A DNA stretch of 64,000 bases from Candidatus Aenigmatarchaeota archaeon (GCA_021157845.1 JAGGVU010000019.1:2410-66409); one strand, 5' to 3'. Positions 10,307 to 62,815 are shown, counted from the first letter of the stretch. Numbers and translations: made by a program. Notes: generated by a model from the sequence alone, not told the origin.

Positions 10307-10804
10307 TCCCTTGCCGGTTAAATGTTGGCCTGCATGATAGATTAACGAGGTTTTCACTGTCCCAAACTAGACCCCGGCGAAACTATCTTTCTGGTGATTA
10401 GACCAGAGACCCCTAATGGGAAGAGTAGACCCCATGGAGCTTTACTGCAGTCTGTTGTTGTTGTATAATTATAATTGTATAGAGTAGGTAGGAGACGTCG
10501 ATATTAGGTCGTTAGATCTAATGGAGTCGCAATGTGTAACACTACCCTTTTATAACTATACAACTAACCTTCGGGGACATCAGCAGATGGGCAGTTTGAC
10601 TGGGGCGGTACGCCTCTGAAAGGATATCAGAGGTGCTCAAAGGTCGGCTCATCAGGGTCAGAAATCCTGAGTAGAGTGTAAAGGCAAAAGCCGGCTTGAT
10701 TGGATTTTGAACATCAAAAAATCCAAAGGCGAAAGCCTGACTTAGCGATACGCATGTTATCCTAGATGGATGCATGTGACATCAGAAAAGCTACCCTGGG
10801 GATA

Positions 10805-16349: not shown

Positions 16350-17191
16350 TGTTTGTTCATCTTCTCTATTTTTTCAGCAAGTTTTTCTATATTTTTGTCT
16401 TTTATTAATTCACCTTTGGAATATTGTTGTTGTATTTTTTTGCTATAAGGTATTTCTGATATCATTTCTACTCCGTAATTTTTAGCCATCTGCTTTATTT
16501 TACTTTTTTTTGCTATATCTGATCTATTTAGAATTATCTTTGTCGGTATATCTAATTTTTTTGTAAGTTGCAAAATTAAATCCAAGTCATGCTCTCCAAG
16601 AGGTGTTGGTTCTGTAACTGCTAATGCCAAGTTACATCCATCCAGCGCCGCGATAACATCACAATGTGTGCCTGCGGCAGTGTCTATTAAAATAAAATCA
16701 TAATTGCCTTTTATTTCTTTTTTTAGGGAATCTACAATAAGTTCAGAGATAAGTTCACCGGGCATTAATTCACCACTGAGAAAAGATAGATTTTGGTTTT
16801 TCCCCACAAAAATATTACCGACAGTTTTCGAAGATTTGGTTATAGCGTTTTCAGGACATACCAATAAACAGGCACCACACCCATTACATTGCTCTCTGAA
16901 AAATATAGGATATTTGTTTTTAACTTGGAGGATAGCATTAGCTTTACAAGCTTCAGAACATTTCCCACATTTTATGCACCTATCGAAATTCCATTTCGGA
17001 ATCATTTGTTTTACTTCTTTCAATTTTTTTCTTTCTATAGATAAAATCAGATGATCATTTGGGCAATCTACATCAGCATCTACCAGAAGAACGCTATTTT
17101 TTTTAGAAAGATATCCAGCTAACGATGTAGATATAACTGACTTCCCAGTTCCGCCTTTTCCACCTGTGATTGCGATTCTCATGGTTTTCAT
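16346..17191 (-). CDS. MinD/ParA-family P-loop ATPase with inserted 2x[4Fe-4S] ferredoxin domain (paralog)
   Basis: ITGGKGGTGKSV; CIKCGKCSEAC and CNGCGACLLVCP. Confidence 0.75.
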   Translation of the reverse strand: MKTMRIAITGGKGGTGKSVISTSLAGYLSKKNSVLLVDADVDCPNDHLILSIERKKLKEVKQMIPKWNFDRCIKCGKCSEACKANAILQVKNKYPIFFREQCNGCGACLLVCPENAITKSSKTVGNIFVGKNQNLSFLSGELMPGELISELIVDSLKKEIKGNYDFILIDTAAGTHCDVIAALDGCNLALAVTEPTPLGEHDLDLILQLTKKLDIPTKIILNRSDIAKKSKIKQMAKNYGVEMISEIPYSKKIQQQYSKGELIKDKNIEKLAEKIEKMNKQ

Positions 17192-17763
17192 GAATAATCC
17201 CCAATATTTTTAAAATCTTTGATTAGAATAGCTTTCATGCTCGGATTATATGCAGCAACAGCTGGGTGATACATTGCTACTATTTTTTCAATACCTACAA
17301 GATTAGCCAATGTAAAAACCCTTCCATGTATACTGCTTATTTTTTCTTGCTTCAATCTAAATTTATCAAAAATATATGATAATGCAAAATTTCCTAATGT
17401 AACAATAATCTTTGGTTGAATTATTTTTATTTGTTCATCGAGATAAGGGCTGCATGCCTTTATCTGCTCTGGAGATGGATTTGCATTATCAGGTGGCCGA
17501 CACTTTAATATGTTTGTAATGTAAATATCTTTTCTTTTTAACCCAATTGAGTTGAGTAATTCGTCAAATATTTTTCCTGCCCTGCCTACAAATGGTTTGC
17601 CTTGTTGATCTTCATTATAGCCAGGCGCCTCACCTATAAACATAATATTAGTAGTTAATGAACCTTCCCCGACAACAGGATTAGTTCTGGTTTTCCATAG
17701 ATTACATCGCTTACACAGATAAATCTTTTGTTTCAACGAATTCATTTCATCAATCATACCCAT
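17188..17763 (-). CDS. udg: uracil-DNA glycosylase, family 4 (Fe-S type)
   Basis: CKRCNLW...GEAPG...GKPFVGRAG...HPA family-4 motifs. Confidence 0.8.
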   Translation of the reverse strand: MGMIDEMNSLKQKIYLCKRCNLWKTRTNPVVGEGSLTTNIMFIGEAPGYNEDQQGKPFVGRAGKIFDELLNSIGLKRKDIYITNILKCRPPDNANPSPEQIKACSPYLDEQIKIIQPKIIVTLGNFALSYIFDKFRLKQEKISSIHGRVFTLANLVGIEKIVAMYHPAVAAYNPSMKAILIKDFKNIGDYS

Positions 17764-29056: not shown

Positions 29057-30991
29057 TTATTGACCAAGAATAAAACTTCCCCTTCTGGAAGGAATTAATT
29101 TCTCTATATCATTCAAATTTATAGATTTCAAAAGATTAGCCTCTTCTTCTGTAACAGCCTTGCTGATAAAGTCTTCTTTTATGCGTCTGGCAAGTTCTGT
29201 TGCAGATGTGTCGCCCGGCTTTATTGTTGTCATGTATTTACATCTGCTTCTTATAGCCTGGGAAGGTCCATATTCAAGTTTTTTGTTTTTTATGTTAAAA
29301 CCTATTGCTATCTTTAATGGCGTTTTTTTCAGGTAATTTCTCTCTCCCTGTATCTGAAAAGAGCCTTTAGGAAGGCCAGGAACTTTTTTTACTTGATTCG
29401 GTCTTATCCAATACATATCAACATTGCCGAGCCCCATTTGCCACGCTTTTGAATATGATGCACCAAATTCTGACGCCTCTCTTATAGCAACAGGTGTTAT
29501 CTCTTTTATTTCCTTTATTCTTGCGTCTATTCTGGATTTTATAACTACAAACGGAGCTCCTTGTATTTCAGCGTGTAAAACGATATCTGTAGGTTCTACA
29601 TACTTTTTAATCAGCTGCTCATTTGTATCCGCATCTTTTCCCGCAACAACTAGAAATCCATCTGACGTCCAAAAATATCTAAACCTTTCATACCATCGTT
29701 TTTGTTTTTTTCGCTCCTTTATTTTTGGGATAAAATCATTTTGTAGTTTAGACAAAATCTTTTCAGGTGACGCTAGGCTTTTTTCTGTTTTTTTCTGTTT
29801 TTTTCTTGCATGCTTTGATTTTTCATATAGCATAGCAGCATTTTCTTCAACAGATTTTGTTATGTCAAGCTCCACGTTCTTTCCATTTAAATCTACCACA
29901 ATTATGCCGTCGTGTTCTCTTATCTCTATAATAGAATTTGCTTCTATGCTGTCTTCTTTTTCTATTATCTGTTTTATTTCGTTCCAGCTATATTTTTGTC
30001 TTGCTTTATTAATTAAATTTAAAATATCGCTAACAAGGCCATAATTTTTGTATATCAAATCTGCTTTAGCTTTTTTTTCTTTTTGTTTTTTTTCAAGTTT
30101 TTTTATCGCCTCTTTATGTTGTTTTATAATAATTTCCCTTTTTTTATCTCGCTCTTCTTCACGATTGTCGGTTTTTTCTAATCCATAATAGCTATCGATG
30201 GCCTGATTAAAGCTAGCCACCTCTTGTATTTGCTTTCCTTCATATACACAAAGCATAAATGGAATTGCATCTATAATTTTATTATTTTCTATTACAATTT
30301 TTGGTTCTGCGTTTTTTGTCATCAGTCTCTTTATTTCGTCAAATAAAATTTTAACCTTTTCTTCTTCAAGTGCTTGGCACATTATCTCTTTATCGATTGC
30401 ACTCTTATTCAGAAGTTCTTCTGCATACAATGACCCAAATCCCAGTCTCACAAGAAAGGATAAGACATCTCTTGGTGAGGCGTATATAATTCTTTTAAAT
30501 TTATTATAATCATCCTCAAACATATTGGTTTTTGGATGTTCATATGTTATGTTTGGAGCAATAATTCTATCTGACCATTTTTGATATTCAAATGCTTTTA
30601 TGATTTTATATGATTTATCTACAAAAATAAAATTGCCGTTATGAAAAAGTTCGATAATTAAAATGTAATCATCAAATATAATTTCAGCTATCCGTTCAAA
30701 ATCATATTGCCGTATCTCTTTTATGCGCTTATTTTTTAATCTCTTTCTGAGAAACATAGAGAATTCTGTCGGTTTTTCTCTTCCTTCTCTGATTTGTTTT
30801 GTAATATGAAACCTGCCAGAAGATGCAAATATTTCAAATGAGCCAATTTTTCTCACATAAACTTTTATTCTTAGATTTCTATCCTTCTTTGTTACGGTGT
30901 CTTGATAAATTTTTTCAACTCTGGCCCCTTCTAGAAATTTCATCTCCTTTATTATGAATTTCAGGTCCAGGCTTGTCATCGCTCTTTGCAC
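29057..30991 (-). CDS. NFACT-family protein (FbpA / Rqc2-NEMF homolog)
   Basis: 644 aa; N-terminal NFACT-N region; C-terminal DUF814-like WYERFRYFWTSDGFLVVAGKDADTNE. Confidence 0.65.
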   Translation of the reverse strand: MQRAMTSLDLKFIIKEMKFLEGARVEKIYQDTVTKKDRNLRIKVYVRKIGSFEIFASSGRFHITKQIREGREKPTEFSMFLRKRLKNKRIKEIRQYDFERIAEIIFDDYILIIELFHNGNFIFVDKSYKIIKAFEYQKWSDRIIAPNITYEHPKTNMFEDDYNKFKRIIYASPRDVLSFLVRLGFGSLYAEELLNKSAIDKEIMCQALEEEKVKILFDEIKRLMTKNAEPKIVIENNKIIDAIPFMLCVYEGKQIQEVASFNQAIDSYYGLEKTDNREEERDKKREIIIKQHKEAIKKLEKKQKEKKAKADLIYKNYGLVSDILNLINKARQKYSWNEIKQIIEKEDSIEANSIIEIREHDGIIVVDLNGKNVELDITKSVEENAAMLYEKSKHARKKQKKTEKSLASPEKILSKLQNDFIPKIKERKKQKRWYERFRYFWTSDGFLVVAGKDADTNEQLIKKYVEPTDIVLHAEIQGAPFVVIKSRIDARIKEIKEITPVAIREASEFGASYSKAWQMGLGNVDMYWIRPNQVKKVPGLPKGSFQIQGERNYLKKTPLKIAIGFNIKNKKLEYGPSQAIRSRCKYMTTIKPGDTSATELARRIKEDFISKAVTEEEANLLKSINLNDIEKLIPSRRGSFILGQ

Positions 30992-31463
30992 TTTTTATCA
31001 CCTTTTTTATAATTTGTTTTTTAACCCCAAAATATTTTTCAAAATTTGGGGTTGTTGTAATGATTTTTGTTCTAGACTTTTTTTCTGTTTTTATAAATCC
31101 CCTCCTTTCCAATTCTTTTATATATTCATATGTTCTATTTCCGATAACTTTGACAATTTCCGATTGTTTTATAGGTTCATAATAAGATATTATAGACAAC
31201 ACGCGCAATACCCCTCTTGACATATCTGCGTGGCTGGTAAGCCTAGAAACCTTTTCGAGGTATTCATCCTTAACTACTAACTTGTACCCGCCAATATTGC
31301 TTAGTTTTATTCCTCTTTCTTCGTTTGCATACAATTCTTTTAAATCATTTAGTAACCACTTAATTTCTTCTTCAGATGTCTTCAATATCCTACTCAGCTG
31401 CTTTATACTGCACGGTTCCTCTGCTGTAAATAAACAGGCTTCAAGCAGGGCTAATTTATTCAT
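30915..31463 (-). CDS. scpB: segregation and condensation protein B
   Basis: ALLEACLFTAEEP.S...L; operon with scpA and smc. Confidence 0.65.
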   Translation of the reverse strand: MNKLALLEACLFTAEEPCSIKQLSRILKTSEEEIKWLLNDLKELYANEERGIKLSNIGGYKLVVKDEYLEKVSRLTSHADMSRGVLRVLSIISYYEPIKQSEIVKVIGNRTYEYIKELERRGFIKTEKKSRTKIITTTPNFEKYFGVKKQIIKKVIKSAKSDDKPGPEIHNKGDEISRRGQS

Positions 31464-32131
31464 TTAACCACCGGGTTTTTTGTAAAAATGAATATCTCAT
31501 CAAAAAATCTCTCCTGAAGATAAAATATCTTTTTTGCATTTAAGAGGTGTAAGAGTGGAAGAAAAACATAAATAATATTTTTTCGTGTCCAGACACCAAC
31601 CAAAGTGGAAAATGCTATTTTTTCATCTGTATAGCTATTTATTTTTTTCATTAAATTATCCGTTCTTTTTTCTATATCCTCCTCATATTTTATAAGCGTT
31701 TCAAAAGTTCTTTTAAGTTTTATCTTTTTCATTTTTTTCTTTTCTTTAAATGCAAATGCCTTCTGCAAGGCCTGTACAAGCTCTGTAATTTTTACTTTCC
31801 TTTTTGGCACCCGCTTTATCGGAGCTTCCAAAGATTTTATATGGCTTATTTCCAGAGGAGTTATTTCTTTCTCCTCTCTTCTTTCTTTCTCCTCTTCCAA
31901 TAATATATCACACTTCATACGAAGCAAAATTGCAGCTACCAAAATAAATCTAGCAGGTATTCTAAAGTCAAAAAATTTTAGTGTATTCAGATATGTTACA
32001 AATGCGTCAGTTAATTTTATTATATCTATTGACCATGGGTCCATATTCTCGTCTATAACTATATTTGTTATGACTTCTTCCCAGTCTGAACTTATTATTA
32101 TATTTTTTATAAGCTCCTGTTCCTTTATCAC
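31460..32131 (-). CDS. scpA: segregation and condensation protein A (kleisin)
   Basis: 223 aa; conserved N-terminal kleisin region; overlaps scpB start. Confidence 0.65.
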   Translation of the reverse strand: MIKEQELIKNIIISSDWEEVITNIVIDENMDPWSIDIIKLTDAFVTYLNTLKFFDFRIPARFILVAAILLRMKCDILLEEEKERREEKEITPLEISHIKSLEAPIKRVPKRKVKITELVQALQKAFAFKEKKKMKKIKLKRTFETLIKYEEDIEKRTDNLMKKINSYTDEKIAFSTLVGVWTRKNIIYVFLPLLHLLNAKKIFYLQERFFDEIFIFTKNPVVK

Positions 32132-38284: not shown

Positions 38285-39544
38285 TTATTTTTTTCTGCGA
38301 CCTTTTCTTCTTTTAGCTGATCTCTTTTTTTTAGATGAGGTTTTGCCATTTTCAATATCTTCTATTATTTTACTAATGTCTCTTACAAACCTTCTTACAT
38401 ATTCTCTTGCGAGCTGAACATCTTTTTCACTGATTTTATTTTCTTTCTTTTCAGCTACCATTTTCCTCATTGTTATGACTTTCTTGAACAAATCTCTATA
38501 TGAACTTTTTATTAACCCGGTTTCTATCAACTCTTTTTCTATAGCACGTGGAAGATCAGCCGGGTCTTCTGGAAGCTTATCCAGTTTCTTTAGCGTAGCA
38601 ACGACTGCCTTTATCATTATTTCATAGTTTTTAATTATAATATTTTCCTTTTTTTTCTTTTCTAGTGAAGAGAAAATTGACAGCATCTGCTTTAGATATG
38701 ATTTTGAAACTTTGATGAATTTATCTAATTCTCTTCCGCTTATTTTGGTTATTTTCTTATGCTCCACGTCTTTTCTGAATTGTACAATTTTTCTCAGGTC
38801 TGAGAGATATTTTCTTTTTAGTAATTTGTTTTTAACTAAATGCTTTTCAACCCCACTTACAATATGTTTCGGAGCAGGTGCCTCCACGCCCATGTACATA
38901 AGAACTGCTTGTGAAGAGTTTAGCATAGCATAGTAAACATCTTCCGCAACCATATATAACTTGGCCATTTCAACCCTTTGAATTTTTTTAGGTGCCCCCT
39001 CTATTAACAATGAGACTGCCTCTATCGTTCCCGGTATTTTACCAAGTTCCAAGAGTTTTCTTGTTGGTATGAAAAATCCTGTATCATAGAGTGCCCAACC
39101 GTCTCTTACTATCGTGTATAATAATGGATGGCCTATTCGCGCCATTTCCCAAAATTCTGTTAATGTCCACGATGGCTGAACATTTATATCTTTTGAAATA
39201 CTTTTTCCAATCTCCTGTATTTTTTTATCAAACACATTTTTCATCTCTTCTGTAAACCTAGCAGTAGTATCATCGATTATGACAAGAAGATCCACATCGC
39301 TTTTTTCATTAAAATCTCCACGAGCAAAAGAACCAAATATAACAACAGACTTGACAATTTTTCCAAATTTCTTGACAATCTTGTTTTTAAACTCTTCCGC
39401 TGCTTTAAGCTGCTTTTTCTTTAACCTTTCCAACGCTTTTTTTCTTTTCTTTTCCAGTTTTTCAATTTTTTGTTTTTCATCTATTTCCTCTTTTCTCAAT
39501 TTTTGTTCCATTTTTTCATTCAGAGTTGCCATGATAATCACCAA
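38285..39544 (-). CDS. Pol-beta-superfamily nucleotidyltransferase-domain protein with K-rich tails
   Basis: GSFARGDFNEKSDVDLLVI NTase motif; about 300 aa helical C-terminal region; C-terminal KKKRSAKRRKGRRKK. Confidence 0.55.
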   Translation of the reverse strand: MVIIMATLNEKMEQKLRKEEIDEKQKIEKLEKKRKKALERLKKKQLKAAEEFKNKIVKKFGKIVKSVVIFGSFARGDFNEKSDVDLLVIIDDTTARFTEEMKNVFDKKIQEIGKSISKDINVQPSWTLTEFWEMARIGHPLLYTIVRDGWALYDTGFFIPTRKLLELGKIPGTIEAVSLLIEGAPKKIQRVEMAKLYMVAEDVYYAMLNSSQAVLMYMGVEAPAPKHIVSGVEKHLVKNKLLKRKYLSDLRKIVQFRKDVEHKKITKISGRELDKFIKVSKSYLKQMLSIFSSLEKKKKENIIIKNYEIMIKAVVATLKKLDKLPEDPADLPRAIEKELIETGLIKSSYRDLFKKVITMRKMVAEKKENKISEKDVQLAREYVRRFVRDISKIIEDIENGKTSSKKKRSAKRRKGRRKK

Positions 39545-39703: not shown

Positions 39704-41653
39704 TCATTTTAATTCTTCCTTTTTCCACTCAGCGCCTTTCCCCTTTTCCACAGCAGCCCTTGATAAAAACCCGTGCGTTTCTTCAGGTACGGCTAGTAGA
39801 CCTTGCAACGGGTCGAACGCATGCTCCCTTATTGCAATATTTTGTGCAGCTTCAAAATTTTTATTAATGCCGAAAAATTCTGGTGGAAGATCTTCAGGTG
39901 CTATATTTTTTTCAAGCGCGTCAATAATTTTTCTATAAGCTATAGCACTTTGTTTTACACCGTAACTTCCCATTTCCCATATTATGTATGTGTTCTTCAT
40001 TCCAGCTTCTCTAAGCTTGTATATGGTTCTATATAATATGTACATATCATTTGATAATAATGCTATTGGCGCGTGCGCACCTGGAATCGGCCTTGGCGCA
40101 TTCACATGCAGGCATCTTATATATTTTCCGTCACCTGGCATGGTTTTCATTATTTTTTCTGCCTCTTCTTCCGGGCTTATGAAATTTGTTGTTAAGTGTT
40201 CAGTATCCAAACAATACGAGATGTGTTCCGGATCAAGTACTTTTGCGATCTTGATGTGGTCAGTTGCCCGTATTATTCTCAACTTTCCTTCTGCTCCTTC
40301 GCTAGGCATATTTGTTTCTATAAATATATGTACTTTGTTTTTCTTTGCATACTCATACGGTGAAACAAATTTTTTTTCACCAGCAGGAATACCGTATTCT
40401 GGGCCGCTTGCCTTGAGATGTCCTTCTATGTATTTGGCAGCAACAGCTGTTATTATTTCTTTTATACTATCATCTAAACTACCTGTTTGTCCCATTTTGG
40501 TGTTTGCTTCTGAAATTATTTTATCTGGGTCTCTCTGGTCGGTTACTATTGAGGTATATAGCGGGTCTTTATTTTTCCACATCCACTTTGCTGTTGCATG
40601 ATAAACAACATATTCCTCTGCTTCTGAGCCATGTTCTCTCCAATATTCAAATACACTTGGGATATCCAACTGGTATAATGTTATTCTTCTGTAAATTGGA
40701 TATATTTTGTTATATTCACTCTTTCCGTATTTTTCAATTATTTTTTCTTTTATGAACTCAGAGCTATTATTTATAATTCTGCTATATCTTCTATCTTTGG
40801 CCGCTTTTGTTCTTCTTAGCTCGGTTAGCTCTTTAATCAGGTTTTCTCTTTTTTTATTTTCTTCGCTTGTTAACCCCTTTCTCGACCTTTTCAGTTCGAG
40901 CTCTCCCAACTCCTTTTCTTTGTTGCCTGCATCTTTTTCTAGCTGGTCGCTGTCTTCGGCAAGTTTTTTGAGTTCTTCTTTTATCTTGTTTTCAGCTTCT
41001 TCAAAAATTCCGTTTATCCTATCCATTTCCTTTTGAAAATTTTCAATATTATCAAAATATTTGACAACATCCACATCTGGTGGAGAGCCCATAGCAGAGA
41101 ACATAACTCGTATGAATTTTGCCATAAACCACTGTTTAAAATTAAATGATCCTCCGGATTCTTTAACAATCCAGTCCCCAAAATTCATTCCATTCCACGA
41201 TGCCATTTTCGACGGATATTGTCTCTGGCCTGATACAGGGGTTAGATTTGGACGAGGGTTGGACGATGTATGAAAGAGCATGAATTTTGCTTTCATTATA
41301 TCAGCTGCAGCAATGGTTCCAAGTTTAAGCTGTTCCTGCATCGTTGACCATATATAGGCATCTGCAAGACACAAATCCATCCTATAAGGAAGATGTAGGC
41401 CAACTTCTATATTTTGAGCCCTTTTTATATGTTCGACCTGCTGTTTTATATCCGGCTCAAACATTTCAGAAAGCGATTCAAAGTCTATCATTGCAAATTC
41501 AAAGCCAAGACGGGCCGCTTTTGTTATTTTTTTGGCCAGACCCATGAATGTTAGCCTGTTCTCACCTTGTTCAAACTGGGAAAATCCAGGGCTGACGCCA
41601 AGAATATATCCGATTGGTCTGTTTTCTTTGTCCCATTTTGGCATAGTTATCAC
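39704..41653 (-). CDS. xylose-isomerase/Endo-IV-like TIM-barrel protein split by a ~230-aa coiled-coil insertion
   Basis: VGLHLPY, FMLFHTS, ...VHIFIETN, CLDTEHL, YIIWEMG resemble AP-endonuclease-2 barrel motifs; central KE-rich heptad region. Confidence 0.4.
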   Translation of the reverse strand: MITMPKWDKENRPIGYILGVSPGFSQFEQGENRLTFMGLAKKITKAARLGFEFAMIDFESLSEMFEPDIKQQVEHIKRAQNIEVGLHLPYRMDLCLADAYIWSTMQEQLKLGTIAAADIMKAKFMLFHTSSNPRPNLTPVSGQRQYPSKMASWNGMNFGDWIVKESGGSFNFKQWFMAKFIRVMFSAMGSPPDVDVVKYFDNIENFQKEMDRINGIFEEAENKIKEELKKLAEDSDQLEKDAGNKEKELGELELKRSRKGLTSEENKKRENLIKELTELRRTKAAKDRRYSRIINNSSEFIKEKIIEKYGKSEYNKIYPIYRRITLYQLDIPSVFEYWREHGSEAEEYVVYHATAKWMWKNKDPLYTSIVTDQRDPDKIISEANTKMGQTGSLDDSIKEIITAVAAKYIEGHLKASGPEYGIPAGEKKFVSPYEYAKKNKVHIFIETNMPSEGAEGKLRIIRATDHIKIAKVLDPEHISYCLDTEHLTTNFISPEEEAEKIMKTMPGDGKYIRCLHVNAPRPIPGAHAPIALLSNDMYILYRTIYKLREAGMKNTYIIWEMGSYGVKQSAIAYRKIIDALEKNIAPEDLPPEFFGINKNFEAAQNIAIREHAFDPLQGLLAVPEETHGFLSRAAVEKGKGAEWKKEELK

Positions 41654-41660: not shown

Positions 41661-43304
41661 TCAATGGCCAACACCCATTTGGCTCTGTAAAAAGTTGACG
41701 ATTGTGTTAAACCTACCACCAACTGTCATTAGATGGAAGTTAGGTATTCTATCATAGAAGTCTCTTTCATATGGACCGCGTTTCAGAAATTTTAATGGGA
41801 TTCCAAAATAGTTGAAAAAGCTGTGTATAGGGTCTGTAATTTTGGTCAGAAATCCTCTTTTTTTTTCTTTATCTTCTTCCAGTTTGTAAAATTCTTCCGG
41901 ATATTCTTCTCTTAGCTTGTCCATTGTTTCAAATTCTTTTCCTTCTGCAACAAACTTTTTACCTTTTTTTATATAGCGCACTGTTTCTAAATATTTTTCA
42001 GAGCCAACAAGCTGGTTTACATATCGTTCGAATTCCTCATGCTTGGCCTTTATTTCCAGAAGTTTCACAAGAAGGATATTCTTGCTCACCATCTTTCCAG
42101 AGATGTCAAATGTTATATCTTCTAATTCGCTCCCGTCAGGCAACCTATACACATCACGCTGCATTTTTATTGGAAACACACTATAGTAGTCCTGTTCTTT
42201 CCCACTGGTCCAAAACGAGCCTTCAGCAATTAATTCTTTGGTTTTTTGTTCCACCCATTTTTCAGTTATCCATGGAAATTCCTCCACAAGACATTTTTCT
42301 CCATTTTTTCTCAGTTTTTTTCTTATATTTGGAAAATCTGCAGCCAAATCAAATATGAAATTTCTTTTGATAAACTCATCAAGCACAGGCGGTGATTTTT
42401 CTCCAAACAATTCACCAGATGTTTTTTTGAATTCTGCAACATCTATGTAATACCATGCAAATATTTCTATTGAATTCTCAGAAACAGCTTGTGCAGCTGA
42501 TTTATAATATTTGCCCGGTTCTGCTTTTCTAATACTGGGTCTTGACAGCCCTTCTTCTATTAATTTATGTTTTGCTATATATGGTTTTAGCCAGTTTTTA
42601 TATTCTTCTACAGACATTCTTCTGCTTCTCACCAAATTCAAAAGGCTTTTATACCGTTCTTTCACTTCTCTGCTAAATATGTGCTTCCATTGTTCATATG
42701 CTTTCCACTTGACTTTTAACATATCTCGTTCCACCTTTGGCAGGTTTGAAAGATATTTATCTTTTTCTAGGTCTTCCAGTGATTGCATAGACATAAAGTC
42801 TTGAACAATTGTTGGCATAATATTAGCATTGCGCATAAATGCCATGCTAAGCCGGCCCGCTCCTTGTGCAGCACCGCCAGTATAAAAGTCCACCTGATCT
42901 ACAAATATTGCTTTCAGGCTCGCTTCGTCTTTATTTTCAATATAGTTAATAAATTCCCTATATTTTCTTAGGTCATGCTTTAATAATTCTAGGTCTGCGA
43001 CAGCCTGAGATACAGATGCCAGACCCTGCTTTATTTTAGATTCAAGCTGCTCTTTTTGTTGTGTTGTAAGCTGAAAATATTGAGCATGAACAGGAGATAT
43101 ATTTATCCATTCATCTACTTTTATCTCTTTCCAGCCCCATTTTGGAATTTGAAATACAAGAGCATAAAACAGGTTAGTTCCTGTTCCTATTTTTCCTGTA
43201 AAGTCTAATGATGTTTTCGCTTCGTATGGCTGGGCATAACATCCCAACCCATGATGTGGGGCTTCTGGGCCCACCAACGCGTAAATTGCATTCCACGAAA
43301 CCAT
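41661..43304 (-). CDS. hypothetical protein, 547 aa
   Basis: Long ORF with no recognisable motif; 7-nt gap to the downstream gene. Confidence 0.4.
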   Translation of the reverse strand: MVSWNAIYALVGPEAPHHGLGCYAQPYEAKTSLDFTGKIGTGTNLFYALVFQIPKWGWKEIKVDEWINISPVHAQYFQLTTQQKEQLESKIKQGLASVSQAVADLELLKHDLRKYREFINYIENKDEASLKAIFVDQVDFYTGGAAQGAGRLSMAFMRNANIMPTIVQDFMSMQSLEDLEKDKYLSNLPKVERDMLKVKWKAYEQWKHIFSREVKERYKSLLNLVRSRRMSVEEYKNWLKPYIAKHKLIEEGLSRPSIRKAEPGKYYKSAAQAVSENSIEIFAWYYIDVAEFKKTSGELFGEKSPPVLDEFIKRNFIFDLAADFPNIRKKLRKNGEKCLVEEFPWITEKWVEQKTKELIAEGSFWTSGKEQDYYSVFPIKMQRDVYRLPDGSELEDITFDISGKMVSKNILLVKLLEIKAKHEEFERYVNQLVGSEKYLETVRYIKKGKKFVAEGKEFETMDKLREEYPEEFYKLEEDKEKKRGFLTKITDPIHSFFNYFGIPLKFLKRGPYERDFYDRIPNFHLMTVGGRFNTIVNFLQSQMGVGH

Positions 43305-55129: not shown

Positions 55130-56989
55130 CTAGCAACTGCTGTCAAAAAAATTTTTTATGTGATGGTCGGGATGTTTTGTTATTATAGCTCTGAAATCAG
55201 ATGGAAATATTTTCTTATAATTGCCCCACACATACCGCTTATCCATAAAAATGACAACGCCTCTATCAGTTTCTGACCTTATACATCGGCCAGCAGCTTG
55301 CATAGCTTTTATCATGGCCGGATATATGTACGCATAGTCCCACCCTTTTGTAAATTTTTTGTCGTAATAATCTATTATTGCCTTGGTTTCTAATGTCGGC
55401 TTTGAAAGAGGTATTCCCACAATTATTACTGCTCTTAGAAACTTACCTGGAAGGTCTATTCCTTGATCAAAAGACCCGCCTATCACTCCGAACAATGCAG
55501 CACCTTTGTCAGCATAGGAGACAAATTCATCTATAAGATTTTTTCTTTCTTCCTTAGTTGCATCTTTCTTTTCCAATATTATCTCTCTATTTATTTCAGA
55601 GGCCGTGAGAATTGTATAATAAATTTTGTTTCTCATCTCATAGCTAGGAAAAAATACAGCTACATTTCCAGGCACAGTATTGATGCACCTTATTAGATAA
55701 TTTGCTATTTTTTTATATTCATTTTCATTTCTATTTTCATATTTTGTTGTCACATCAGTTAGTATAAGGTTAAGTCTGCTTTTTGCTGGAAAAGACGAGT
55801 GGTATTCTTTTTTTAGTGTTCGCCTCTTTTCCAGTCCCAGAAGATCTTCATACATATTCATCGGTTTTAGCGTTCCTGACATCAAAATGGCAGAATGTAC
55901 ATCATTAAAAATATCTTTCGATATAATAGAGGGGTCGAGACAACTATATGTCAATACTATTTTATTATCTGTTTTTGTTATTATTCTTGTATATCCAAGG
56001 TCGTCTCCAAGCCATCTCTCAAGGAAATTTCCAACAGAGCCTATAAATGATTTCTTTTTTTCTTCTCTTATCTCGTTACCTGCAACATGAAATTTTTCAA
56101 TAAGTGAGTAGTAGTCATCAATTTCTTCCACCAGCTTTATAAATACATCTTTCTTAATATATGCTTCTTCATCAGACCTTCCCGCAAGTTTTGTAATTAC
56201 TTTTTCAAGTTCTTGCAGATTTTCCTTTATTATAGGTGCTTCAAATTCTTCTGCCTCTTTCATAGCAGCTTTCAGCAAAAAGGAAGAGAGCTTTAAGGTA
56301 AGGAGCGATCTTATTCTGTTTGGAAGGTTATGTGCTTCGTCTATTACTAATATAATATCACCCAACGGCTTTTCTACGTTTTCCAATATTGGCGCACTTG
56401 CCGAGGAAAATATATGAAAATAATCTGCTACTATGACATTTGCTTCTTTTGCCATTCTCATCGTAAGTTCATATGGGCACAGGCGTTCATCCTTACAATA
56501 GTAATAAACATCTTCTGTGTGGAGAGGCTGCTTTATTTTTAGGTTCCTGATTACATTTCTGGCTTTTTTTCTTAGCTTGCCGTCTTTTATCGTATTTTTA
56601 TAAAACATACACTTATTATCTTTTCGCATAATTTTGCAATATTCTGTAAAATCGCTATTTGATAATTTATCTATATAAGGAACAGGACAGAGCCATTTTT
56701 TACCTATCAGGTCAACGGCAATGAAATCTTCATCAGAGGAATTTTTAATCATCTTCAACGTTTCTATTGCTAAGAGATGCTGAGAATGTCTGGGTGTTAG
56801 AAAGAAAATAATTTTTTCATTGTCTAGTGCATATTTTAATGCTGGTGCGAGAACAGCCACTGTTTTTCCTATCCCGGTAGGCGCATGTGCCAATAATATT
56901 TTTTTGTTCGCCAGACATAAATTAACATCGTTGAGAAATTCTTTTTGGCCCGGTCTGATTTTTTTAAACGGAAAGAAAGATGTACGCAT
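55130..56989 (-). CDS. xpd: XPD/Rad3-family Fe-S DNA helicase
   Basis: AHAPTGIGKT; four-Cys Fe-S domain; DEAH box VIDEAHN. Confidence 0.8.
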   Translation of the reverse strand: MRTSFFPFKKIRPGQKEFLNDVNLCLANKKILLAHAPTGIGKTVAVLAPALKYALDNEKIIFFLTPRHSQHLLAIETLKMIKNSSDEDFIAVDLIGKKWLCPVPYIDKLSNSDFTEYCKIMRKDNKCMFYKNTIKDGKLRKKARNVIRNLKIKQPLHTEDVYYYCKDERLCPYELTMRMAKEANVIVADYFHIFSSASAPILENVEKPLGDIILVIDEAHNLPNRIRSLLTLKLSSFLLKAAMKEAEEFEAPIIKENLQELEKVITKLAGRSDEEAYIKKDVFIKLVEEIDDYYSLIEKFHVAGNEIREEKKKSFIGSVGNFLERWLGDDLGYTRIITKTDNKIVLTYSCLDPSIISKDIFNDVHSAILMSGTLKPMNMYEDLLGLEKRRTLKKEYHSSFPAKSRLNLILTDVTTKYENRNENEYKKIANYLIRCINTVPGNVAVFFPSYEMRNKIYYTILTASEINREIILEKKDATKEERKNLIDEFVSYADKGAALFGVIGGSFDQGIDLPGKFLRAVIIVGIPLSKPTLETKAIIDYYDKKFTKGWDYAYIYPAMIKAMQAAGRCIRSETDRGVVIFMDKRYVWGNYKKIFPSDFRAIITKHPDHHIKNFFDSSC

Positions 56990-57318: not shown

Positions 57319-57645
57319 TTAGTCAAGGATTTTCGGTAATCCCAGTGAAAGAAGTGAGATGCAATCATTTTCTATTTTTGGCAATCCTATAGAAAGAACT
57401 GATATATCTTCATAAGTTGTCCATGGAGGAATAATTATGTCAACCTCTTTACCATTAATATCTTTTTTACCGATTACAGCTAAATATCCTTCGCCGGTTT
57501 TTTCTTTGGTTTGCGTGTAAAATGCAATTGCTCTGTTAATAAGCTCTCCCACGCTAATACCTTCTTCTTCTGCTTTCTTTACGAGATATCCATTATCCTG
57601 AAACCTTATTTCTTCATTTGGGAACTTCAGGGTATACATTGTCAT
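57319..57645 (-). CDS. hypothetical protein with C-terminal tandem repeat
   Basis: 108 aa; SVLSIGLPKIENDCISLLSLGLPKILD. Confidence 0.35.
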   Translation of the reverse strand: MTMYTLKFPNEEIRFQDNGYLVKKAEEEGISVGELINRAIAFYTQTKEKTGEGYLAVIGKKDINGKEVDIIIPPWTTYEDISVLSIGLPKIENDCISLLSLGLPKILD

Positions 57646-57665
57646 CTTATCACACTACTATTTAT

Positions 57666-58859
57666 TCAATAATCTTTTAATGTCTTTTGTTTTAACTGTC
57701 TCAGAAGCCAGCTTTTTTCTGTCCATTGCGGAATTTTTCTTGTATATTTTATTACGTTTTCCAAGCTTTTAAATTTTATTGCTTTTTTATTAAAGCAACC
57801 CCTTACAGTTTCGCGAACCACCCACACGCCAAGCGGAATAAAATATTCGTCTGATATTTTTCTTAATATCAGCACAGATGCCTGCCTTTTTATTTTATTT
57901 AAATATTCTGCAACACCAAGCCGGGCTGCGTAATAACCGCCTGTGACATTTGATGCATAATTTTTTCTGCCAAAATAGGCTTCATAATCCTGACTGATAA
58001 AGTATTCATTTCTTCTATTCCATACAGAATTCTTTTTCCAGAATTCCATGATTTCAAAGCTCCACAAAGATGGAACTAAGATTATAAGAAAATAGTTTCC
58101 CAGATAGCTATTTTCAAATATTTGGTACTCGTTTATGAGTGGATATTTTTTTATATTTTCAATAAGATTCTTGGATATAACATCATCTGTTGCTGTTATA
58201 GACCAGCGGGTTGGAACAATCTTTTTTTGTGTCTTTGTGCCAAGCAGACCGGCTGAGAATATTTTTTGTATTTGGTTAATATCTGTCAATTTATAGAGTT
58301 TGGTTAGTTGCTCTTCTGCCTTTAAATCATCTCTGACAACATATTCAATTTTTGATGATATTTTTGTGTTTTCGGTTATTACGATTTTTTTTAACTTAGC
58401 AGATGAGCCAATTGGTGCCGTTCTTGTGTCCAAAGATACAACTATCTTTGGTCTTTTACTAAGGATTATTTCACTGGTAACTGGTCTTTTTGCAAGAGCC
58501 ACTTCTTGTACAACTTCTAAAAATTTTTTATCTAGTTTAGCCGGCTTTATGTTTCCTGGTTTTTTGGAGTTTATTAGTTGGTACCTTGTTTCAAGAACAC
58601 TTTGTATCTCATATCTTTTCTTATACCAATAGTCTGGGCTATCCATCGTCCAAGAATTTTTATCTACAACCGGCGGACCAACAATTCCTATATTTACATT
58701 CGGGTATGAATATGTTCCAACAAATACTGAAGGTAATGAGCTGTTGAAATTTTCTTTCACAGATTTGACTTTTTGAACGGAATCAGCAATTCTTTTTAGA
58801 ATTTTACACGGCTTTCCGCACAGACCCTTTCCTTTGCAACGTATACACAGATAATCCAT
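57666..58859 (-). CDS. Nre-family (archaeal DNA-repair-associated) protein
   Basis: N-terminal CIRCKGKGLCGKPC zinc-finger signature; about 400 aa. Confidence 0.45.
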   Translation of the reverse strand: MDYLCIRCKGKGLCGKPCKILKRIADSVQKVKSVKENFNSSLPSVFVGTYSYPNVNIGIVGPPVVDKNSWTMDSPDYWYKKRYEIQSVLETRYQLINSKKPGNIKPAKLDKKFLEVVQEVALAKRPVTSEIILSKRPKIVVSLDTRTAPIGSSAKLKKIVITENTKISSKIEYVVRDDLKAEEQLTKLYKLTDINQIQKIFSAGLLGTKTQKKIVPTRWSITATDDVISKNLIENIKKYPLINEYQIFENSYLGNYFLIILVPSLWSFEIMEFWKKNSVWNRRNEYFISQDYEAYFGRKNYASNVTGGYYAARLGVAEYLNKIKRQASVLILRKISDEYFIPLGVWVVRETVRGCFNKKAIKFKSLENVIKYTRKIPQWTEKSWLLRQLKQKTLKDY

Positions 58860-58890
58860 AATAATGAGCCATGAGAAAAATAAATAAAGT

Positions 58891-59877
58891 TCAATACCAG
58901 ATGGTTCTTGTAAGATGGTGTGGTTTTTTTATTTCGCCATTTCTTCCCACACTCCATAGAGCATAATCTACATGAAGCGCATTCACATTATAGTCAGAGT
59001 CAATTTCTTTTATTAACTTATCTGCTGCATGAATGGTGGCTGCCCTAATTTCTAGTTCTTCCCTTGAGCCAGCATCTATTGGGATTTTATTGTCGACCTT
59101 TTCTCTCAATTCTTTGGTATAGTTAAGCATTTTCATTTCTCGCAATGCTTTGGGCAGTTCATAATCAGCAAATACTGTTAGTTTGTCAATATCTTGAAAT
59201 GGTTTTTTGTCCTGCAATCTTCCATAAATCATTCCAGCAGCCAGCTGTGCCCTTTTATTAAAGTGAACTATTCTTGCGCGGATTCCATCATAGGCCACAC
59301 ACGAATCATTATATGATGGAAAATCATTTACCAGCCTTTCTACAAATCCATCTCCATTGTTAAAAAGCTTTCCATTTGCTTTGTCAAATAAATTATAAAA
59401 GTGTCCGCCGTATTTATCTACAAGAATTTCACCGGCTTCTTGAAGAATTATTTGTCTTTCCTCCAGCATTGGCATCGGCGGATTGCCAGCAAATATTTTT
59501 TCAACATCTTTTTTTGTTAATGCCTTCAGATAATCTCCGCAAAGTATTTGTTCATCTGTTTCTTTCAACGCTCTTTTAAGAGCAGCCCACATGCCGAATG
59601 CTCCGAACCAATGGCCATTATAGTTGACAGAGAATGTTTCGCCGGTTTCAAAATCTGTAAAAGCAAAATTTACAAGATTTCCGACACACAAGAAATCTAC
59701 TATTGTTTCGATATCATCAGTTTCAGGAAAAACAGGCGCATCCCACCTTGGTATTTTTAGTTCCTCTTTCGCGAATTCTTTACCCACCTCTTTGACTTTA
59801 TGGTTGTTTATAAAAACGTATTTTGGATGTTCCACCAAAAATCTTGTCGATTCCAAAACGTTATTCATGTTTACCAT
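58891..59877 (-). CDS. Qng1/DUF2419 queuosine-salvage protein homolog (queuosine-5'-phosphate N-glycosylase family)
   Basis: MPMLEERQIILQEAGEILVDKYGG, FPSYND, FNKRAQLAAG, FADYELPKAL, EELEIRAA, DYALWS, PHHLTRTIWY follow the conserved blocks of human C9orf64/QNG1. Confidence 0.75.
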   Translation of the reverse strand: MVNMNNVLESTRFLVEHPKYVFINNHKVKEVGKEFAKEELKIPRWDAPVFPETDDIETIVDFLCVGNLVNFAFTDFETGETFSVNYNGHWFGAFGMWAALKRALKETDEQILCGDYLKALTKKDVEKIFAGNPPMPMLEERQIILQEAGEILVDKYGGHFYNLFDKANGKLFNNGDGFVERLVNDFPSYNDSCVAYDGIRARIVHFNKRAQLAAGMIYGRLQDKKPFQDIDKLTVFADYELPKALREMKMLNYTKELREKVDNKIPIDAGSREELEIRAATIHAADKLIKEIDSDYNVNALHVDYALWSVGRNGEIKKPHHLTRTIWY

Positions 59878-62388
59878 TCACACAACAGAATTTTCAAAAA
59901 GGCGGTTAAAATCAATCTTTTTTATAAACTCATCGCCCTCTTTTGCATATTTTTCCAACGTTTTCGGAAATATGTCTATAGATATTAATGGACCGGTTTC
60001 CGGTCCTCCAACAGGCAGACCCAATATTTTTGCACCGTTGACCGTACGAGGATAATCATTTGCTTCCCCATACGGGGTATTTGTCTGTCCAAGACAGTAA
60101 CATTTTTGGTGAAAAACATTTCTGCCCAAACTTTCTCCTCCATGATGGCTATGACCAGCACGATTTATCGTAAATTTTTTGGTTACTATGGCTGAAAATG
60201 CACCCCTATTTCTAAATTTATCCCGCATAGTTTTTACATCATCTTTAGTTTTTGACGTGCCTTGTTTATGCTTGTTGTACTCTGAATATGTTTTTTCTTT
60301 TATACCAAAAAGGCCGGCATAAACACCAATTTTACCATATATAGGTGCGCGTATCCTCTCTTCCGGTATACCATGTTGTTTTAGCTCCCTTGCTATTTCT
60401 TTTGGCAAGAAGGACATTCCACTATCGTTTCCTTTTGGAGTTTTTTCTCCATGGTTGCCACCGATTATTACTATAGATGGGCCCACAAGCCCTGCCTTTT
60501 TACCACGTTCAACAACACTTTTGAAGAAATCAATATCCATTATATCTCTGAACTCAATCCCCTGGTCCTGCGGAACAATTATACCGTGCTTATATGAGCT
60601 CATCGCCCCAAGTTTTTTTAGTTTAATTGCCTTTTCTTTATCAGAAATTGGCTCGTTTAAAATTTCATCGGCCTTCTCGCGAAATTGATACGGGGTTAAT
60701 GGTAAATCTGTTTTACCTTCTTTCCATGTAGTTTCTCTCTCGTTTTCAGTGTCTCTATTTTTATATTCTATCAAATCTCCCAAATCATTTACTCTTAAAA
60801 TAGGTGCATTTTTAAGAAAACTTTGTAAAACTTCAAACGAGTACTTTACATCATCTTCTGTCTCTATAACGTATGGAAATTTTGAGCCTATGTGAGTATC
60901 AGCATAATCTAGCTCATACATAATTTTTTCGTCTAAATCTTCACGGCTAAAGATATTTTCATTTGTTAGAAATTCGCTTAGCAGTATTTTTCTTTTCGGA
61001 ATCTCATTTACAAACTCTACAATTATCGCACCAGATGAAAAATCACTTTTTTTTGCCAATTTGTCCATTTTTGTTACAGATCGGTTTTCTCTTTTTCTCA
61101 TTTCGCGGAGTTCTTCCTCATCTAAACATGTTGGTAATTGTATGAGAAGTGTTTCCTTCTGTCCGTCTTCTGTGTCAAACGTAATTGGGTGCATCGTATA
61201 GGTTGGTGACAACCCTCCTTGTACAACTACATCATAAGAAATTCCAGAACTAAGTTCGTCCTGGACTCTTTTTATAAGATTATTTATCATAGTAGAGGAT
61301 GGTTCGTCAGTAGATTTTCGTGTGTCATATATAACGTTAAGCTTATAATCTCCTATATTTATTACAGATTCTCCAGAAGGAATTACCTTAAGATTAGGTA
61401 ATATGCTCTCTAATTTTTTGGATATGTATTCTTTCATTTCATTCGCAAGAAGATTTTTAAAATCATCATCTGTATTTGTCATCATCACGCGGGATAGGTA
61501 CTGATGGCACTCGTTAGTTGCGTTTTCTATATAGCGAATTATATTTTCAGGGTTTCCATCTAAATTATATAGTTTTCCTTTTTTATCAAAATATTTTTTT
61601 ATTTCTTCCAGTTCGTTTTCGTTCTCTTCTATGATATTTTTCATTTTTCTTATTTTATTTTTAAGTTTCTTCTTCTTTTTTTTATCTTTTGTTATAGAAA
61701 ATGTGTATTCTAACAGCGGAAGAATCTGTTTATTGAAAGAAGTTATTTCTGTTAATTTAGTTGCTTTTAATAAATATTTTTCCACCTCTCTCTTTTCTCG
61801 GTTTAGGTCATTAATTAAAGACTTTGTCAACTCTTTTTCTTTAACAGTGGCATTTCTAACTTTTTCATTTATATGTTGCCTAAGCAGGTCATCTTCCATA
61901 TCACCGAAAATTAGATAAATATCTTTATCAAATAGCTCCTTTTCAGTTTCGCCTTTAAACACATGTTCTATATAATCTATTACCATGTCAAATTTTTCTT
62001 TAAAAGTTATAAATAGCGGTTTTCGGTCTTTGGAATTTATTATTTTTTCCGGGTTGCTTATAGTTTTTTTGATTGTTTTCGGGTAGTTTATTTTTTCAGG
62101 GTCTATGCGTATGTGAGACTTTCTTGCCCTATCTGGAGCATATTTTGAATATCGCATCATATCTATATAGAACAAGTTTCCGGTTATTACGATTGCATCA
62201 ACGTCATCATGTTTGCAATATTTAAGAAAATTTTTAACTAGGCCTTTATTTGTTTTTCCTCCGACATAAATAGTATTTATAAATCCAACTTTTGGATTAT
62301 GTTTAACAGAAGGCTTTATATGAATTTCATAATTTTTCAATAAACCGTTTGAATATTTTCTAACTTCTTTCTCTGTTACAATACTCAT
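59878..62388 (-). CDS. 836-aa protein: uncharacterised K-rich N-terminal half plus C-terminal Mre11/PolD-DP1-like calcineurin-type metallophosphoesterase domain
   Basis: Motifs in order: DYADTHIGS (I), NDLGDLIE (II), IIGGNHGE (III), GHSHHGG (V). Confidence 0.5.
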   Translation of the reverse strand: MSIVTEKEVRKYSNGLLKNYEIHIKPSVKHNPKVGFINTIYVGGKTNKGLVKNFLKYCKHDDVDAIVITGNLFYIDMMRYSKYAPDRARKSHIRIDPEKINYPKTIKKTISNPEKIINSKDRKPLFITFKEKFDMVIDYIEHVFKGETEKELFDKDIYLIFGDMEDDLLRQHINEKVRNATVKEKELTKSLINDLNREKREVEKYLLKATKLTEITSFNKQILPLLEYTFSITKDKKKKKKLKNKIRKMKNIIEENENELEEIKKYFDKKGKLYNLDGNPENIIRYIENATNECHQYLSRVMMTNTDDDFKNLLANEMKEYISKKLESILPNLKVIPSGESVINIGDYKLNVIYDTRKSTDEPSSTMINNLIKRVQDELSSGISYDVVVQGGLSPTYTMHPITFDTEDGQKETLLIQLPTCLDEEELREMRKRENRSVTKMDKLAKKSDFSSGAIIVEFVNEIPKRKILLSEFLTNENIFSREDLDEKIMYELDYADTHIGSKFPYVIETEDDVKYSFEVLQSFLKNAPILRVNDLGDLIEYKNRDTENERETTWKEGKTDLPLTPYQFREKADEILNEPISDKEKAIKLKKLGAMSSYKHGIIVPQDQGIEFRDIMDIDFFKSVVERGKKAGLVGPSIVIIGGNHGEKTPKGNDSGMSFLPKEIARELKQHGIPEERIRAPIYGKIGVYAGLFGIKEKTYSEYNKHKQGTSKTKDDVKTMRDKFRNRGAFSAIVTKKFTINRAGHSHHGGESLGRNVFHQKCYCLGQTNTPYGEANDYPRTVNGAKILGLPVGGPETGPLISIDIFPKTLEKYAKEGDEFIKKIDFNRLFENSVV

Positions 62389-62815
62389 TCAGACACCCCA
62401 CAACTACTCTTTATTAATTTTCTATATCAAATATAATTACTATTGTCTCCTAACTATAAATTCATTCAGATGATATTTTATATATTTTAGAATATATATC
62501 GGAATGTATAGAAAAATATTTAATTAACTAGTAAATACAAAAAAGTTGGACAGAACAGCGGTTTAATAGCCGATTCTCGCTTAATTTAGCTAAATTAATC
62601 ACCGGTTTCTATCAAAATGCCAAGGTATTCGGAGACATCTGGTCAAGATATGCTGAATAGTTAAAGCAAACATAAATGCATTATACCTTCAGGACAGAAC
62701 TTGCGAGGACAAGCCTGACTGTAAGAAGTTGTCTAAATTCACTTAAGAATCAGATTATAATAACCTACCCGAATTTAGACAAAAAATAAATTTTTCTTCA
62801 TTTAGGCCCTGCTTA

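Follow-up and report, generated by a model that had tools for sequence, protein, structure and literature searches.

What does a homolog of a queuosine salvage enzyme do in an archaeon, and do the genes packed around it form one working unit with it? These questions are raised by a stretch of 64,000 nucleotides from Candidatus Aenigmatarchaeota archaeon (GCA_021157845.1 JAGGVU010000019.1:2410-66409; hereafter "the window", whose positions serve as coordinates unless a contig or another locus is named). An earlier reading of this DNA (the original prediction) described three minus-strand genes in a row, encoding an 836-amino acid (aa) "Mre11/DP1-like" phosphoesterase, a 328-aa homolog of Qng1 (DUF2419), and an Nre-family protein, and took them together for a nucleic-acid or nucleoside processing module. 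The answer that we favor is composite: a DPANN-type Qng1 that acts on something other than queuosine phosphate, an 836-aa phosphoesterase, an ordinary Nre protein, and a gene string peculiar to one lineage. As a whole, we give this package a slightly better than even chance of being correct. PF10343, the metallophosphoesterases, and Nre are already known protein families; a DPANN-type Qng1 clade with a coherent switch of pocket residues appears to be undescribed in the searchable literature, and so does a family of helix-turn-helix (HTH)/coiled-coil/phosphoesterase proteins found in DPANN archaea and bacteria of the candidate phyla radiation (CPR).

A DPANN-type Qng1 clade and its active site

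The 328-aa protein matched PF10343 (Q_salvage) with an E value of 1.5e-61 (209 bits, against a cutoff of 25) over profile positions 4-285 of 285, and it aligned end to end with two enzymes of known structure in the PDB, namely Qng1 of Sphaerobacter thermophilus (StQng1; 7U07, E 2.1e-45) and human QNG1 (HsQNG1; 7UGK, E 2e-32). The match to PF10343 being significant, the protein is a genuine Qng1/DUF2419 homolog, as had been proposed from its sequence blocks. The view that such a protein is a rarity in archaea did not hold, since a large protein search retrieved 351 homologs in which DPANN lineages were dominant. The named close homologs come from Woesearchaeota, Pacearchaeota, Micrarchaeota, an uncultured archaeon, and Haloferax, and several archaeal ones already carry the NCBI name "queuosine salvage family protein".

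Scanning a single genome for each GTDB species yielded 31 Qng1 loci. Those at 40-51% identity belong to Nanoarchaeota, Woesearchaeota, Micrarchaeota, and Parvarchaeota, plus an Elusimicrobiota and an Armatimonadetes metagenome-assembled genome (MAG), and those at 29-37% identity are mostly from Chloroflexia/Thermomicrobia (the group of the characterized bacterial Qng1), the others being from Acetothermia, two CPR bacteria, and a Gammaproteobacteria MAG. Neighbor joining split the DPANN type, hosted mainly by DPANN archaea, from the Q-type in 500 of 500 bootstraps; mean identity was 47.8% within the DPANN type and 31.5% between the types. The 328-aa protein almost certainly belongs to this distinct DPANN-type clade, apart from both characterized enzymes.

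The residue roles reported for StQng1 (PMC9881137) were mapped onto 120 homologs and onto each genome locus; StQng1 numbering is used below unless a residue is assigned to the query. The catalytic and base-binding core is nearly universal, with K199 and Y232 found in all 120 homologs, D231 in 116, D298 in 119, and W302 in 107. The same applies to the set around the terminal carboxylate, where E267, H316, and the C-terminal Tyr (Y323) each occur in 119. The query keeps them all (K208, D238, Y239, E274, D304, W308, H321, and the C-terminal Y328 of its ...TIWY end), that is, the helix-hairpin-helix (HhH) catalytic Lys/Asp pair K199 and D231, the Tyr after the Asp, the guanine-face reader D298, and the stacking W302, together with the C-terminal Tyr carboxylate and its Glu/His anchors. 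In StQng1 this carboxylate binds the ribose 3'-OH and thereby closes the site on a free nucleotide (PMC9881137). Given these features, the full-length homology, and a similar length, the chemistry on a free nucleotide is probably alike in the query and in Qng1/QNG1 (7U07/7U91, 7UGK).

The two kinds of enzyme differ at the residues that read the queuosine side chain. In StQng1, the protonated secondary amine of queuosine passes its proton to a relay of D69, N72, D207, and a water, and Y93 contacts the 7-methylamine through a cation-pi interaction; replacement of D69, N72, D207, or D231 by Ala compromises complementation (PMC9881137). Among the 120 homologs, D69 is replaced by Asn in 94 (query N67), and Y93 by Ala in 95 and by Ser in 23 (query A93). 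D207 is never Asp and is Met in 82 (query M216), I203 is Leu in all but one (119; query L212), W94 is Phe, Tyr, or Met (query F94), and H53 is Phe or Tyr in 88 (query F50); at the W299 position the query has Y305. Judged by D69, D207, Y93, W94, and H53/W299, the query therefore lacks the queuosine side-chain pocket and proton relay, and the pattern is clade-wide. The contacts to the 5'-phosphate (R80, K233, and Q306) are likewise absent from the query, which has T81, E240, and R312 there, plus K243 at the Q236 position. In the clade this site is remodeled and still cationic, with K80, V or E at K233, K or R at Q236, and R or K at Q306.

Across genomes the pocket pattern is nearly bimodal: nearly all DPANN loci are in one state and the Chloroflexia/Thermomicrobia loci in the other. 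The exceptions concern single positions, with D69 kept at one Nanoarchaeota locus and W94 missing from the Acetothermia locus. HsQNG1 has N53 and Y299, but keeps D69, Y93, W94, and D207. Thus, in a family whose specificity residues are known at atomic level, a large separate clade has kept the chemistry and swapped exactly those residues.

Some bacterial PF10343 proteins display a third pocket variant that matches neither the Q-type nor the DPANN type (G/D69, D72, A/S93, D94, L203, M207, A299, and H306). It was seen in P0110 and P0118 (proteins of Terriglobia and related metagenome sequences) and on short contigs (L049-L051), where the fragment upstream of the Terriglobia homologs had no Pfam match. 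The Haloferax copy (Haloferax sp. contig JAMQOO010000016.1, 6001-6984; L007) departs from the clade at W302F, Q306D, and K236N. Its neighbors are a tyrosine recombinase, a VP3-like protein, a Csa3-like HTH protein, and several domains of unknown function; these surroundings resemble those of an integrated element or provirus and hint at horizontal transfer. Scans of viral contigs for the Qng1 family and for the family of the 836-aa protein were negative. In addition, a locus labeled "uncultured Methanosarcinales archaeon" (L015) shares nearly all of its flanking gene families with a Nanoarchaeia locus (L012), and so its contig is probably a mis-binned or mislabeled DPANN contig.

The substrate of the Qng1 homolog

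Since the core is kept along with the terminal Tyr328 carboxylate and its anchors Glu274 and His321, the query most likely still hydrolyzes a free guanine-type 5'-mononucleotide (or nucleoside). Since the side-chain positions are now occupied by Asn67, Met216, Ala93, and Phe94, we infer a substrate other than queuosine phosphate; the possibility of a different substrate, raised in the original prediction, fits the systematic replacement of the queuosine side-chain pocket. The enzyme would cut the N-glycosidic bond of its substrate and free the base for reuse. With the pocket rebuilt and both carboxylates lost, a 7-substituent without a cationic aminomethyl group should fit best, by analogy with StQng1. 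The likelier candidate is a nucleotide of a 7-deazaguanine whose 7-substituent is neutral. The preQ0 (7-cyano) nucleotide would be the most plausible one, and the archaeosine nucleotide, whose free base decays to preQ0, an alternative. The base so released would feed the tRNA-guanine transglycosylase (TGT) of a nucleotide-scavenging organism.

A preQ0-type role gains plausibility from three observations. Once free, the archaeosine base deamidates to preQ0, which archaea are thought to salvage (PMC5699537; PMC5372724), and a transporter encoded beside qng1 of Acidobacteriota unexpectedly moves preQ0/preQ1 rather than queuosine (PMC11130926). In Woesearchaeota JAFGRK010000016.1 (L006/L016, ~5527-10192), the Qng1 homolog lies near genes for a T4 endonuclease V-like protein, a nucleotide pyrophosphatase/phosphodiesterase, a PNP/UDP-family nucleoside phosphorylase, and a NUDIX hydrolase, a neighborhood that looks like nucleotide salvage and was seen in this lineage only. 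We nevertheless propose the specific preQ0-type substrate only tentatively, as one possibility, because several points pull the other way. The pocket argument rests on analogy with StQng1, and at the R80 phosphate position the query has Thr rather than the Lys of the clade. No tgt, arcS, or queCDE gene was found in the window or in the ~8 kb of public contig beyond it. The archaeosine version is weakened because protonated archaeosine would want an acidic partner, and none is conserved.

True queuosine salvage, in which the enzyme would free queuine from bacteria-derived queuosine-5'-phosphate for a bacterial-type TGT in this archaeon, would account for the strong full-length PF10343 match, the conserved catalytic core, and the NCBI label of the archaeal members. 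At the level of genomes, the statement in the original prediction that queuosine use is not known in archaea no longer holds: bacterial Tgt/QueA/QueH have been reported in 34 archaeal genomes, 12 of them DPANN (PMC8204110; Castelle 2021). For this reason queuine salvage is a live rival, though a less likely one. It has to contend with the clade-wide replacement of all four side-chain contacts (D69, D207, Y93, and W94), of which D69 and D207 were shown to be important in StQng1, with the clean separation of the clade from both characterized enzymes, and with the absence of a TGT gene from the window and the ~8 kb beyond, and we judge it to be unlikely. The label "queuosine salvage family protein" has probably propagated a wrong specificity to DPANN-type members. 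A general scavenging hydrolase would instead split some other modified guanine nucleotide of host RNA turnover (e.g., methylated or oxidized GMP) into base and ribose-5-phosphate. Such a role would suit DPANN archaea, which, according to the same report (PMC8204110), depend on scavenged nucleotides, and it agrees with the salvage-like neighborhood in one lineage and with a site that keeps the guanine-face reader D298 next to a more hydrophobic 7-substituent pocket. We consider it distinctly improbable, however, given that the Qng1 family characteristically has no residue anchoring purine N7, which fits 7-deaza substrates, and that StQng1 and HsQNG1 leave GMP, AMP, CMP, and UMP uncleaved (PMC9881137).

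The remaining alternative departs from nucleotide chemistry altogether. A DNA-repair reading of the cluster is tempting, as Qng1 has the HhH fold of Ogg1, AGOG, and EndoIII (PMC9881137); the query could then be a DNA glycosylase in a repair operon with an Mre11-like nuclease (the 836-aa protein, whose top PDB fold match is SbcD), Nre, and the nearby XPD/Rad3 helicase, and one Woesearchaeota homolog does come after a T4 endonuclease V-like gene. This reading conflicts with the invariant terminal carboxylate: in StQng1 the C-terminal Tyr with E267 and H316 encloses the ligand and binds its 3'-OH, an arrangement incompatible with an internal residue of a polymer. Moreover, the characterized enzymes do not act on polymers, as both StQng1 and HsQNG1 are inactive on tRNA, and on queuosine 3'-monophosphate (Q-3'MP) as well (PMC9881137), and the gene order is conserved only in ~98%-identical strains. 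A DNA glycosylase is accordingly very unlikely.

Qng1 is the only enzyme family known to free queuine from its nucleotide, and the DPANN-type clade is concentrated in ultra-small symbiotic archaea. It may thus offer a testable lead on how organisms without de novo 7-deazaguanine synthesis get the base for archaeosine or queuosine. In the fullest form of this idea, preQ0- (or archaeosine-) 5'-monophosphate from the turnover of the cell's own or its host's tRNA would be hydrolyzed, and the freed preQ0 would pass to the archaeal TGT (arcTGT) in symbionts unable to make preQ0 de novo. The joint claim that DPANN-type Qng1 supplies a base-release step so far missing from an archaeal route for recycling or scavenging 7-deazaguanines, and that the 836-aa protein represents a new class of HTH/coiled-coil/metallophosphoesterase nucleic-acid enzymes specific to DPANN/CPR, is speculative, and we doubt that both halves will hold together.

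The 836-aa protein and its family

The protein encoded directly upstream of the Qng1 homolog had no match in Pfam, NCBIfam, PADLOC, or PHROG. A word-indexed protein search, with the sequence alone or with a 50-sequence profile, returned only the protein itself, probably because words from its Lys-rich coiled coil swamped the candidate list. An exhaustive HMMER search uncovered 89 relatives, 31 of them at E<=1e-30 and most of them 800-1000 aa long. They occur in Woesearchaeota, Nanoarchaeota, Parcubacteria, and Sungbacteria, and their only names are "hypothetical" and "HTH domain-containing". Given an alignment of 50 sequences, AlphaFold2 (AF2) produced a model with a predicted local distance difference test score (pLDDT) of 91.2 and a predicted template modeling score (pTM) of 0.86, against a pLDDT of 38.5 for the single sequence.

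In this model (Table 1), the region that had been described as a K-rich N terminus of ~500 aa without assignment becomes an alpha/beta region split by a coiled coil, and its Lys-rich character is seen in the stretch KDKKKKKKLKNK (residues 234-245) at the apex of the predicted coiled coil. The first part of the alpha/beta region is conserved at N38, G43, D64, "TGN" 69-71, D76, and G162..E165, and its layout resembles Mre11 motif II without the set of metal ligands; the profile match is weak and not significant (E 0.06-0.08). The predicted coiled coil comprises helices 163-232, 236-273, 280-300, and 308-329 and had only weak matches of coiled-coil type (Rad50 coiled coil and LmuB). In the beta-rich second part, the family consensus contains a conserved "QLPxCxD" element. 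The family also varies at its N terminus. Most relatives carry an extension of ~65-200 aa. Wherever its type could be recognized, it is a winged HTH (by Pfam in 7 of 50 members, with P0124 and P0128 as clear cases), whereas the 836-aa protein has 19 aa and no winged HTH. PADLOC and PHROGs likewise gave only HTH matches for the relatives.

The C-terminal part carries metallophosphoesterase motifs I, II, III, and V, as claimed, and motif IV besides: I, ADTHIG (496-501); II, LGDLIEYKN (536-544); III, GNH (644-646); IV, KHK (706-708); and V, GHSHHGG (745-751). Their key residues D497-x-H499, G537-D538, G644-N645-H646, H707, and G745-H746-x-H748 follow in order. Over the 50 members, the metal ligands are conserved at D497 (41), H499 (46), D538 (49), N645 (44), H646 (50), H707 (47), and H748 (46), and position 746 is His in 27 and Asp in 22. 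Foldseek of the model against BFVD (predicted viral structures) gave 15 matches at E<=1e-3 (best 2.7e-8), all named ones being calcineurin-like metallophosphatases, and these matches together with the confident model place the protein in the metallophosphoesterase fold. Two results weigh against the assignment. The 836-aa protein matched no Pfam model at threshold, including PF00149 and PF12850, and only three of 50 relatives did so weakly (two PF00149, best E 0.012; one PF12850, E 4.5e-4). In addition, the PDB matches, with Escherichia coli SbcD at the top (4M0V, E 0.013) and then purple acid phosphatases (E ~0.01-0.05), were not significant, and the top match was not assigned to a domain. 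In 50,697 phage genomes, tblastn with the C-terminal domain as query found nothing.

By every family test applied, the protein is neither Mre11 nor the small subunit of PolD (DP1), as "Mre11/DP1-like" would have it. The case for either rests on the ordered motifs with all metal ligands, on SbcD as top PDB fold match, on very weak profile matches (Mre11, E ~0.06, in which the segment D-A-V-V-I-T-G-N of the N-terminal region resembles motif II; DP1, E ~2-9, with a marginal match at the GHxH motif), and on one BFVD fold match annotated "DNA polymerase II small subunit". Against DP1, the PDB DP1 matches reach only E 1.9-8.8 over ~37 residues, no DP1 hidden Markov model matched, no OB-fold is evident, and the check for a PolD large subunit (DP2) found none in the window or the ~8 kb flank. 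The family is also found in CPR bacteria, and bacteria are not known to have PolD. Against Mre11/SbcD, the window and the ~8 kb of public contig beyond it contain neither Rad50 nor SbcC, and neither adjoins the family's gene on a near-identical contig (L001) or at two other loci (L009 and L010); the SMC of the window is a hinge-containing SMC with ScpA. The joint test for a Rad50/SbcC partner and an Mre11 capping domain was negative. The architecture is unlike either protein, with a helical insertion of ~67 residues separating motif II from motif III, an additional N-terminal region of ~470 residues that contains the ~165-residue coiled coil, and an HTH in relatives, and the best significant fold matches are uncharacterized phage metallophosphatases. 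We therefore regard canonical Mre11 or DP1 as extremely unlikely.

As a metallophosphoesterase of its own family, the protein may be an Mn/Fe-dependent phosphodiesterase or nuclease acting on nucleic acid, a reading by analogy that we base on the HTH of its relatives, the coiled coil, and the SbcD-like fold. The family is shared between DPANN archaea and CPR bacteria, both being radiations of episymbionts with reduced genomes. It has gone unannotated there, and the high-confidence model supplies a domain plan and a predicted catalytic site to mutate.

Two further observations concern this family. An origin of the N-terminal alpha/beta region by internal (tandem) duplication, which would make it a degenerate second metallophosphoesterase, found no support, as hhalign against the C-terminal domain gave a 0.3% probability; the sole point in its favor was the non-significant match to Mre11 motif II. 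Separately, a conserved protein of ~100 aa is encoded directly after the gene of the 836-aa family in three independent lineages (L009:3007-3315, L010:9816-10139, L044:3845-4150, and L047:1576-1899), and is 44-54% identical from one lineage to another. Its motif is GQVD(I/L)V.WDK.G.P..(I/V)E(I/L)TTG; it had no match in Pfam, PADLOC, or PHROG, and it is absent from the window and from two other loci (L045 and L046). This protein may be a partner subunit of the 836-aa family.

The gene string and its surroundings

The window is archaeal by its small and large subunit (SSU and LSU) rRNA, its RNase P RNA, and ribosomal protein L15e; it has ~35% GC, and the public record closest to it, at 98% identity, belongs to a MAG of Candidatus Aenigmatarchaeota (locus tag DRP08_00520). 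The open reading frame (ORF) listing placed the three minus-strand genes in the same direction and at the positions originally given, and the features of the string are collected in Table 1 with the other genes mentioned below.

Table 1. Features of the gene string at 57,319-62,815 and of other genes in the window
Feature	Position	Strand	Basis
836-aa protein	59878-62388	minus	ORF listing
N-terminal alpha/beta region, part 1 (residues 20-162)	61903-62331	minus	conservation, AF2
Predicted coiled-coil insertion (residues 163-329, ~165 residues)	61402-61902	minus	AF2, pLDDT >90
N-terminal region, part 2, beta-rich (residues 330-485)	60934-61401	minus	AF2 strands 333-470
C-terminal metallophosphoesterase domain (residues 486-836)	59881-60933	minus	motifs, fold matches
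Helical insertion between motifs II and III (residues 566-632)	60493-60693	minus	AF2
Qng1 homolog, 328 aa	58891-59877	minus	ORF listing and PF10343
Nre-family protein, 397 aa	57666-58859	minus	PF04894 and PF04895
108-aa ORF	57319-57645	minus	ORF listing
ORF-free upstream region, 427 nt	62389-62815	no strand	no ORF of at least 60 aa
XPD/Rad3 helicase	55130-56989	minus	family match
SMC, short, 818 aa	32166-34622	minus	family match
ScpA	31460-32131	minus	family match
NFACT protein	29057-30991	minus	family match
Family-4-type uracil-DNA glycosylase	17188-17763	minus	family match

The stop codon of the 836-aa gene does abut the start of the Qng1 homolog (minus strand, ...gtg TGA ATG gta aac ATG aat...); in near-identical contigs, the publicly called Qng1 gene begins at the second ATG, 9 nt downstream, which yields 325 aa. 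A 31-nt gap separates the Qng1 stop from the Nre start, and the co-directional 108-aa ORF begins 20 nt downstream of Nre. Owing to this tight spacing, the genes are probably one transcription unit, of which the 108-aa ORF is possibly the last gene; it had no match in Pfam or NCBIfam. We also compared it with the small protein that trails other genes of the 836-aa family, and relatedness was not convincing.

The Nre-family protein downstream of the Qng1 homolog was borne out, as the 397-aa protein matched both Nre domains in full length (PF04894, E 3e-84; PF04895, E 6.4e-33). Both domains are like those of NreA and other archaeal Nre proteins, and its NF041387 NreA score (309 bits) lies below the 700-bit equivalog cutoff of the haloarchaeal NreA, so that membership is at the family level only. 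Its N terminus bears a Cys cluster, CIRCKGKGLCGKPC, and its C-terminal tail, QKTLKDY, may resemble a PIP box. It is an ordinary Nre-family repair factor.

The processing module of the original prediction did not survive comparison with other genomes. The order of the three genes was found only on ~98%-identical contigs (L001-L003), so their juxtaposition is lineage-specific. At four more distant archaeal Qng1 loci (L004-L007) the neighbors are unrelated; when the flanking proteins at 35 loci (L004-L007 and L011-L041) were clustered, any one family occurred at four loci at most, and divergent DPANN genomes had none in common; and neither Qng1 nor Nre adjoins the two other 836-aa-family genes at L009 and L010. 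The 836-aa protein, Qng1, and Nre are thus not a conserved functional module, and the four tightly packed co-directional genes (phosphoesterase, Qng1 homolog, Nre, and the 108-aa ORF) are a lineage-specific string. Against reading the string as mere juxtaposition, the spacing suggests co-transcription, and some functional coupling may exist in this lineage.

The region upstream of the string is presumed, from its sequence, to be its promoter and 5' region. It has a GGGGTG Shine-Dalgarno-like element ~7 nt before the ATG of the 836-aa gene and AT-rich TATA-like tracts farther upstream. It had no Rfam match at E<=1, no significant folding signal (z-scores -1.55 and -1.04), and, over its 427 nt, no remnant of the family's N-terminal HTH. 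This gap is unusually long, and it holds a 13-bp perfect inverted repeat (GUCUAAAUUCGGG ... complement) at about 62723-62782.

Elsewhere in the window, the SMC and ScpA genes and those for uracil-DNA glycosylase, XPD, and NFACT look like ordinary housekeeping genes. A 547-aa protein (41661-43304, minus strand) had no family assignment, and the adjoining 649-aa protein (39704-41653, minus strand) has only a weak partial match to the AP_endonuc_2 TIM barrel; a Pol-beta-type nucleotidyltransferase gene (38285-39544) follows the two. The rRNA genes are overlong, the SSU (4504-6256) measuring 1753 nt against 1478 nt in the Rfam model and the LSU (7423-11950) 4528 against 2987 nt. ORFs for LAGLIDADG homing endonucleases lie in them or at their edge on the plus strand (6255-7064, 9641-10120, and 10899-11525), with matches to PF00961 (E 1e-21) and PF14528 (E 2e-19 and 8.5e-8). 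The rRNA operon thus holds several insertions or introns with endonuclease ORFs.

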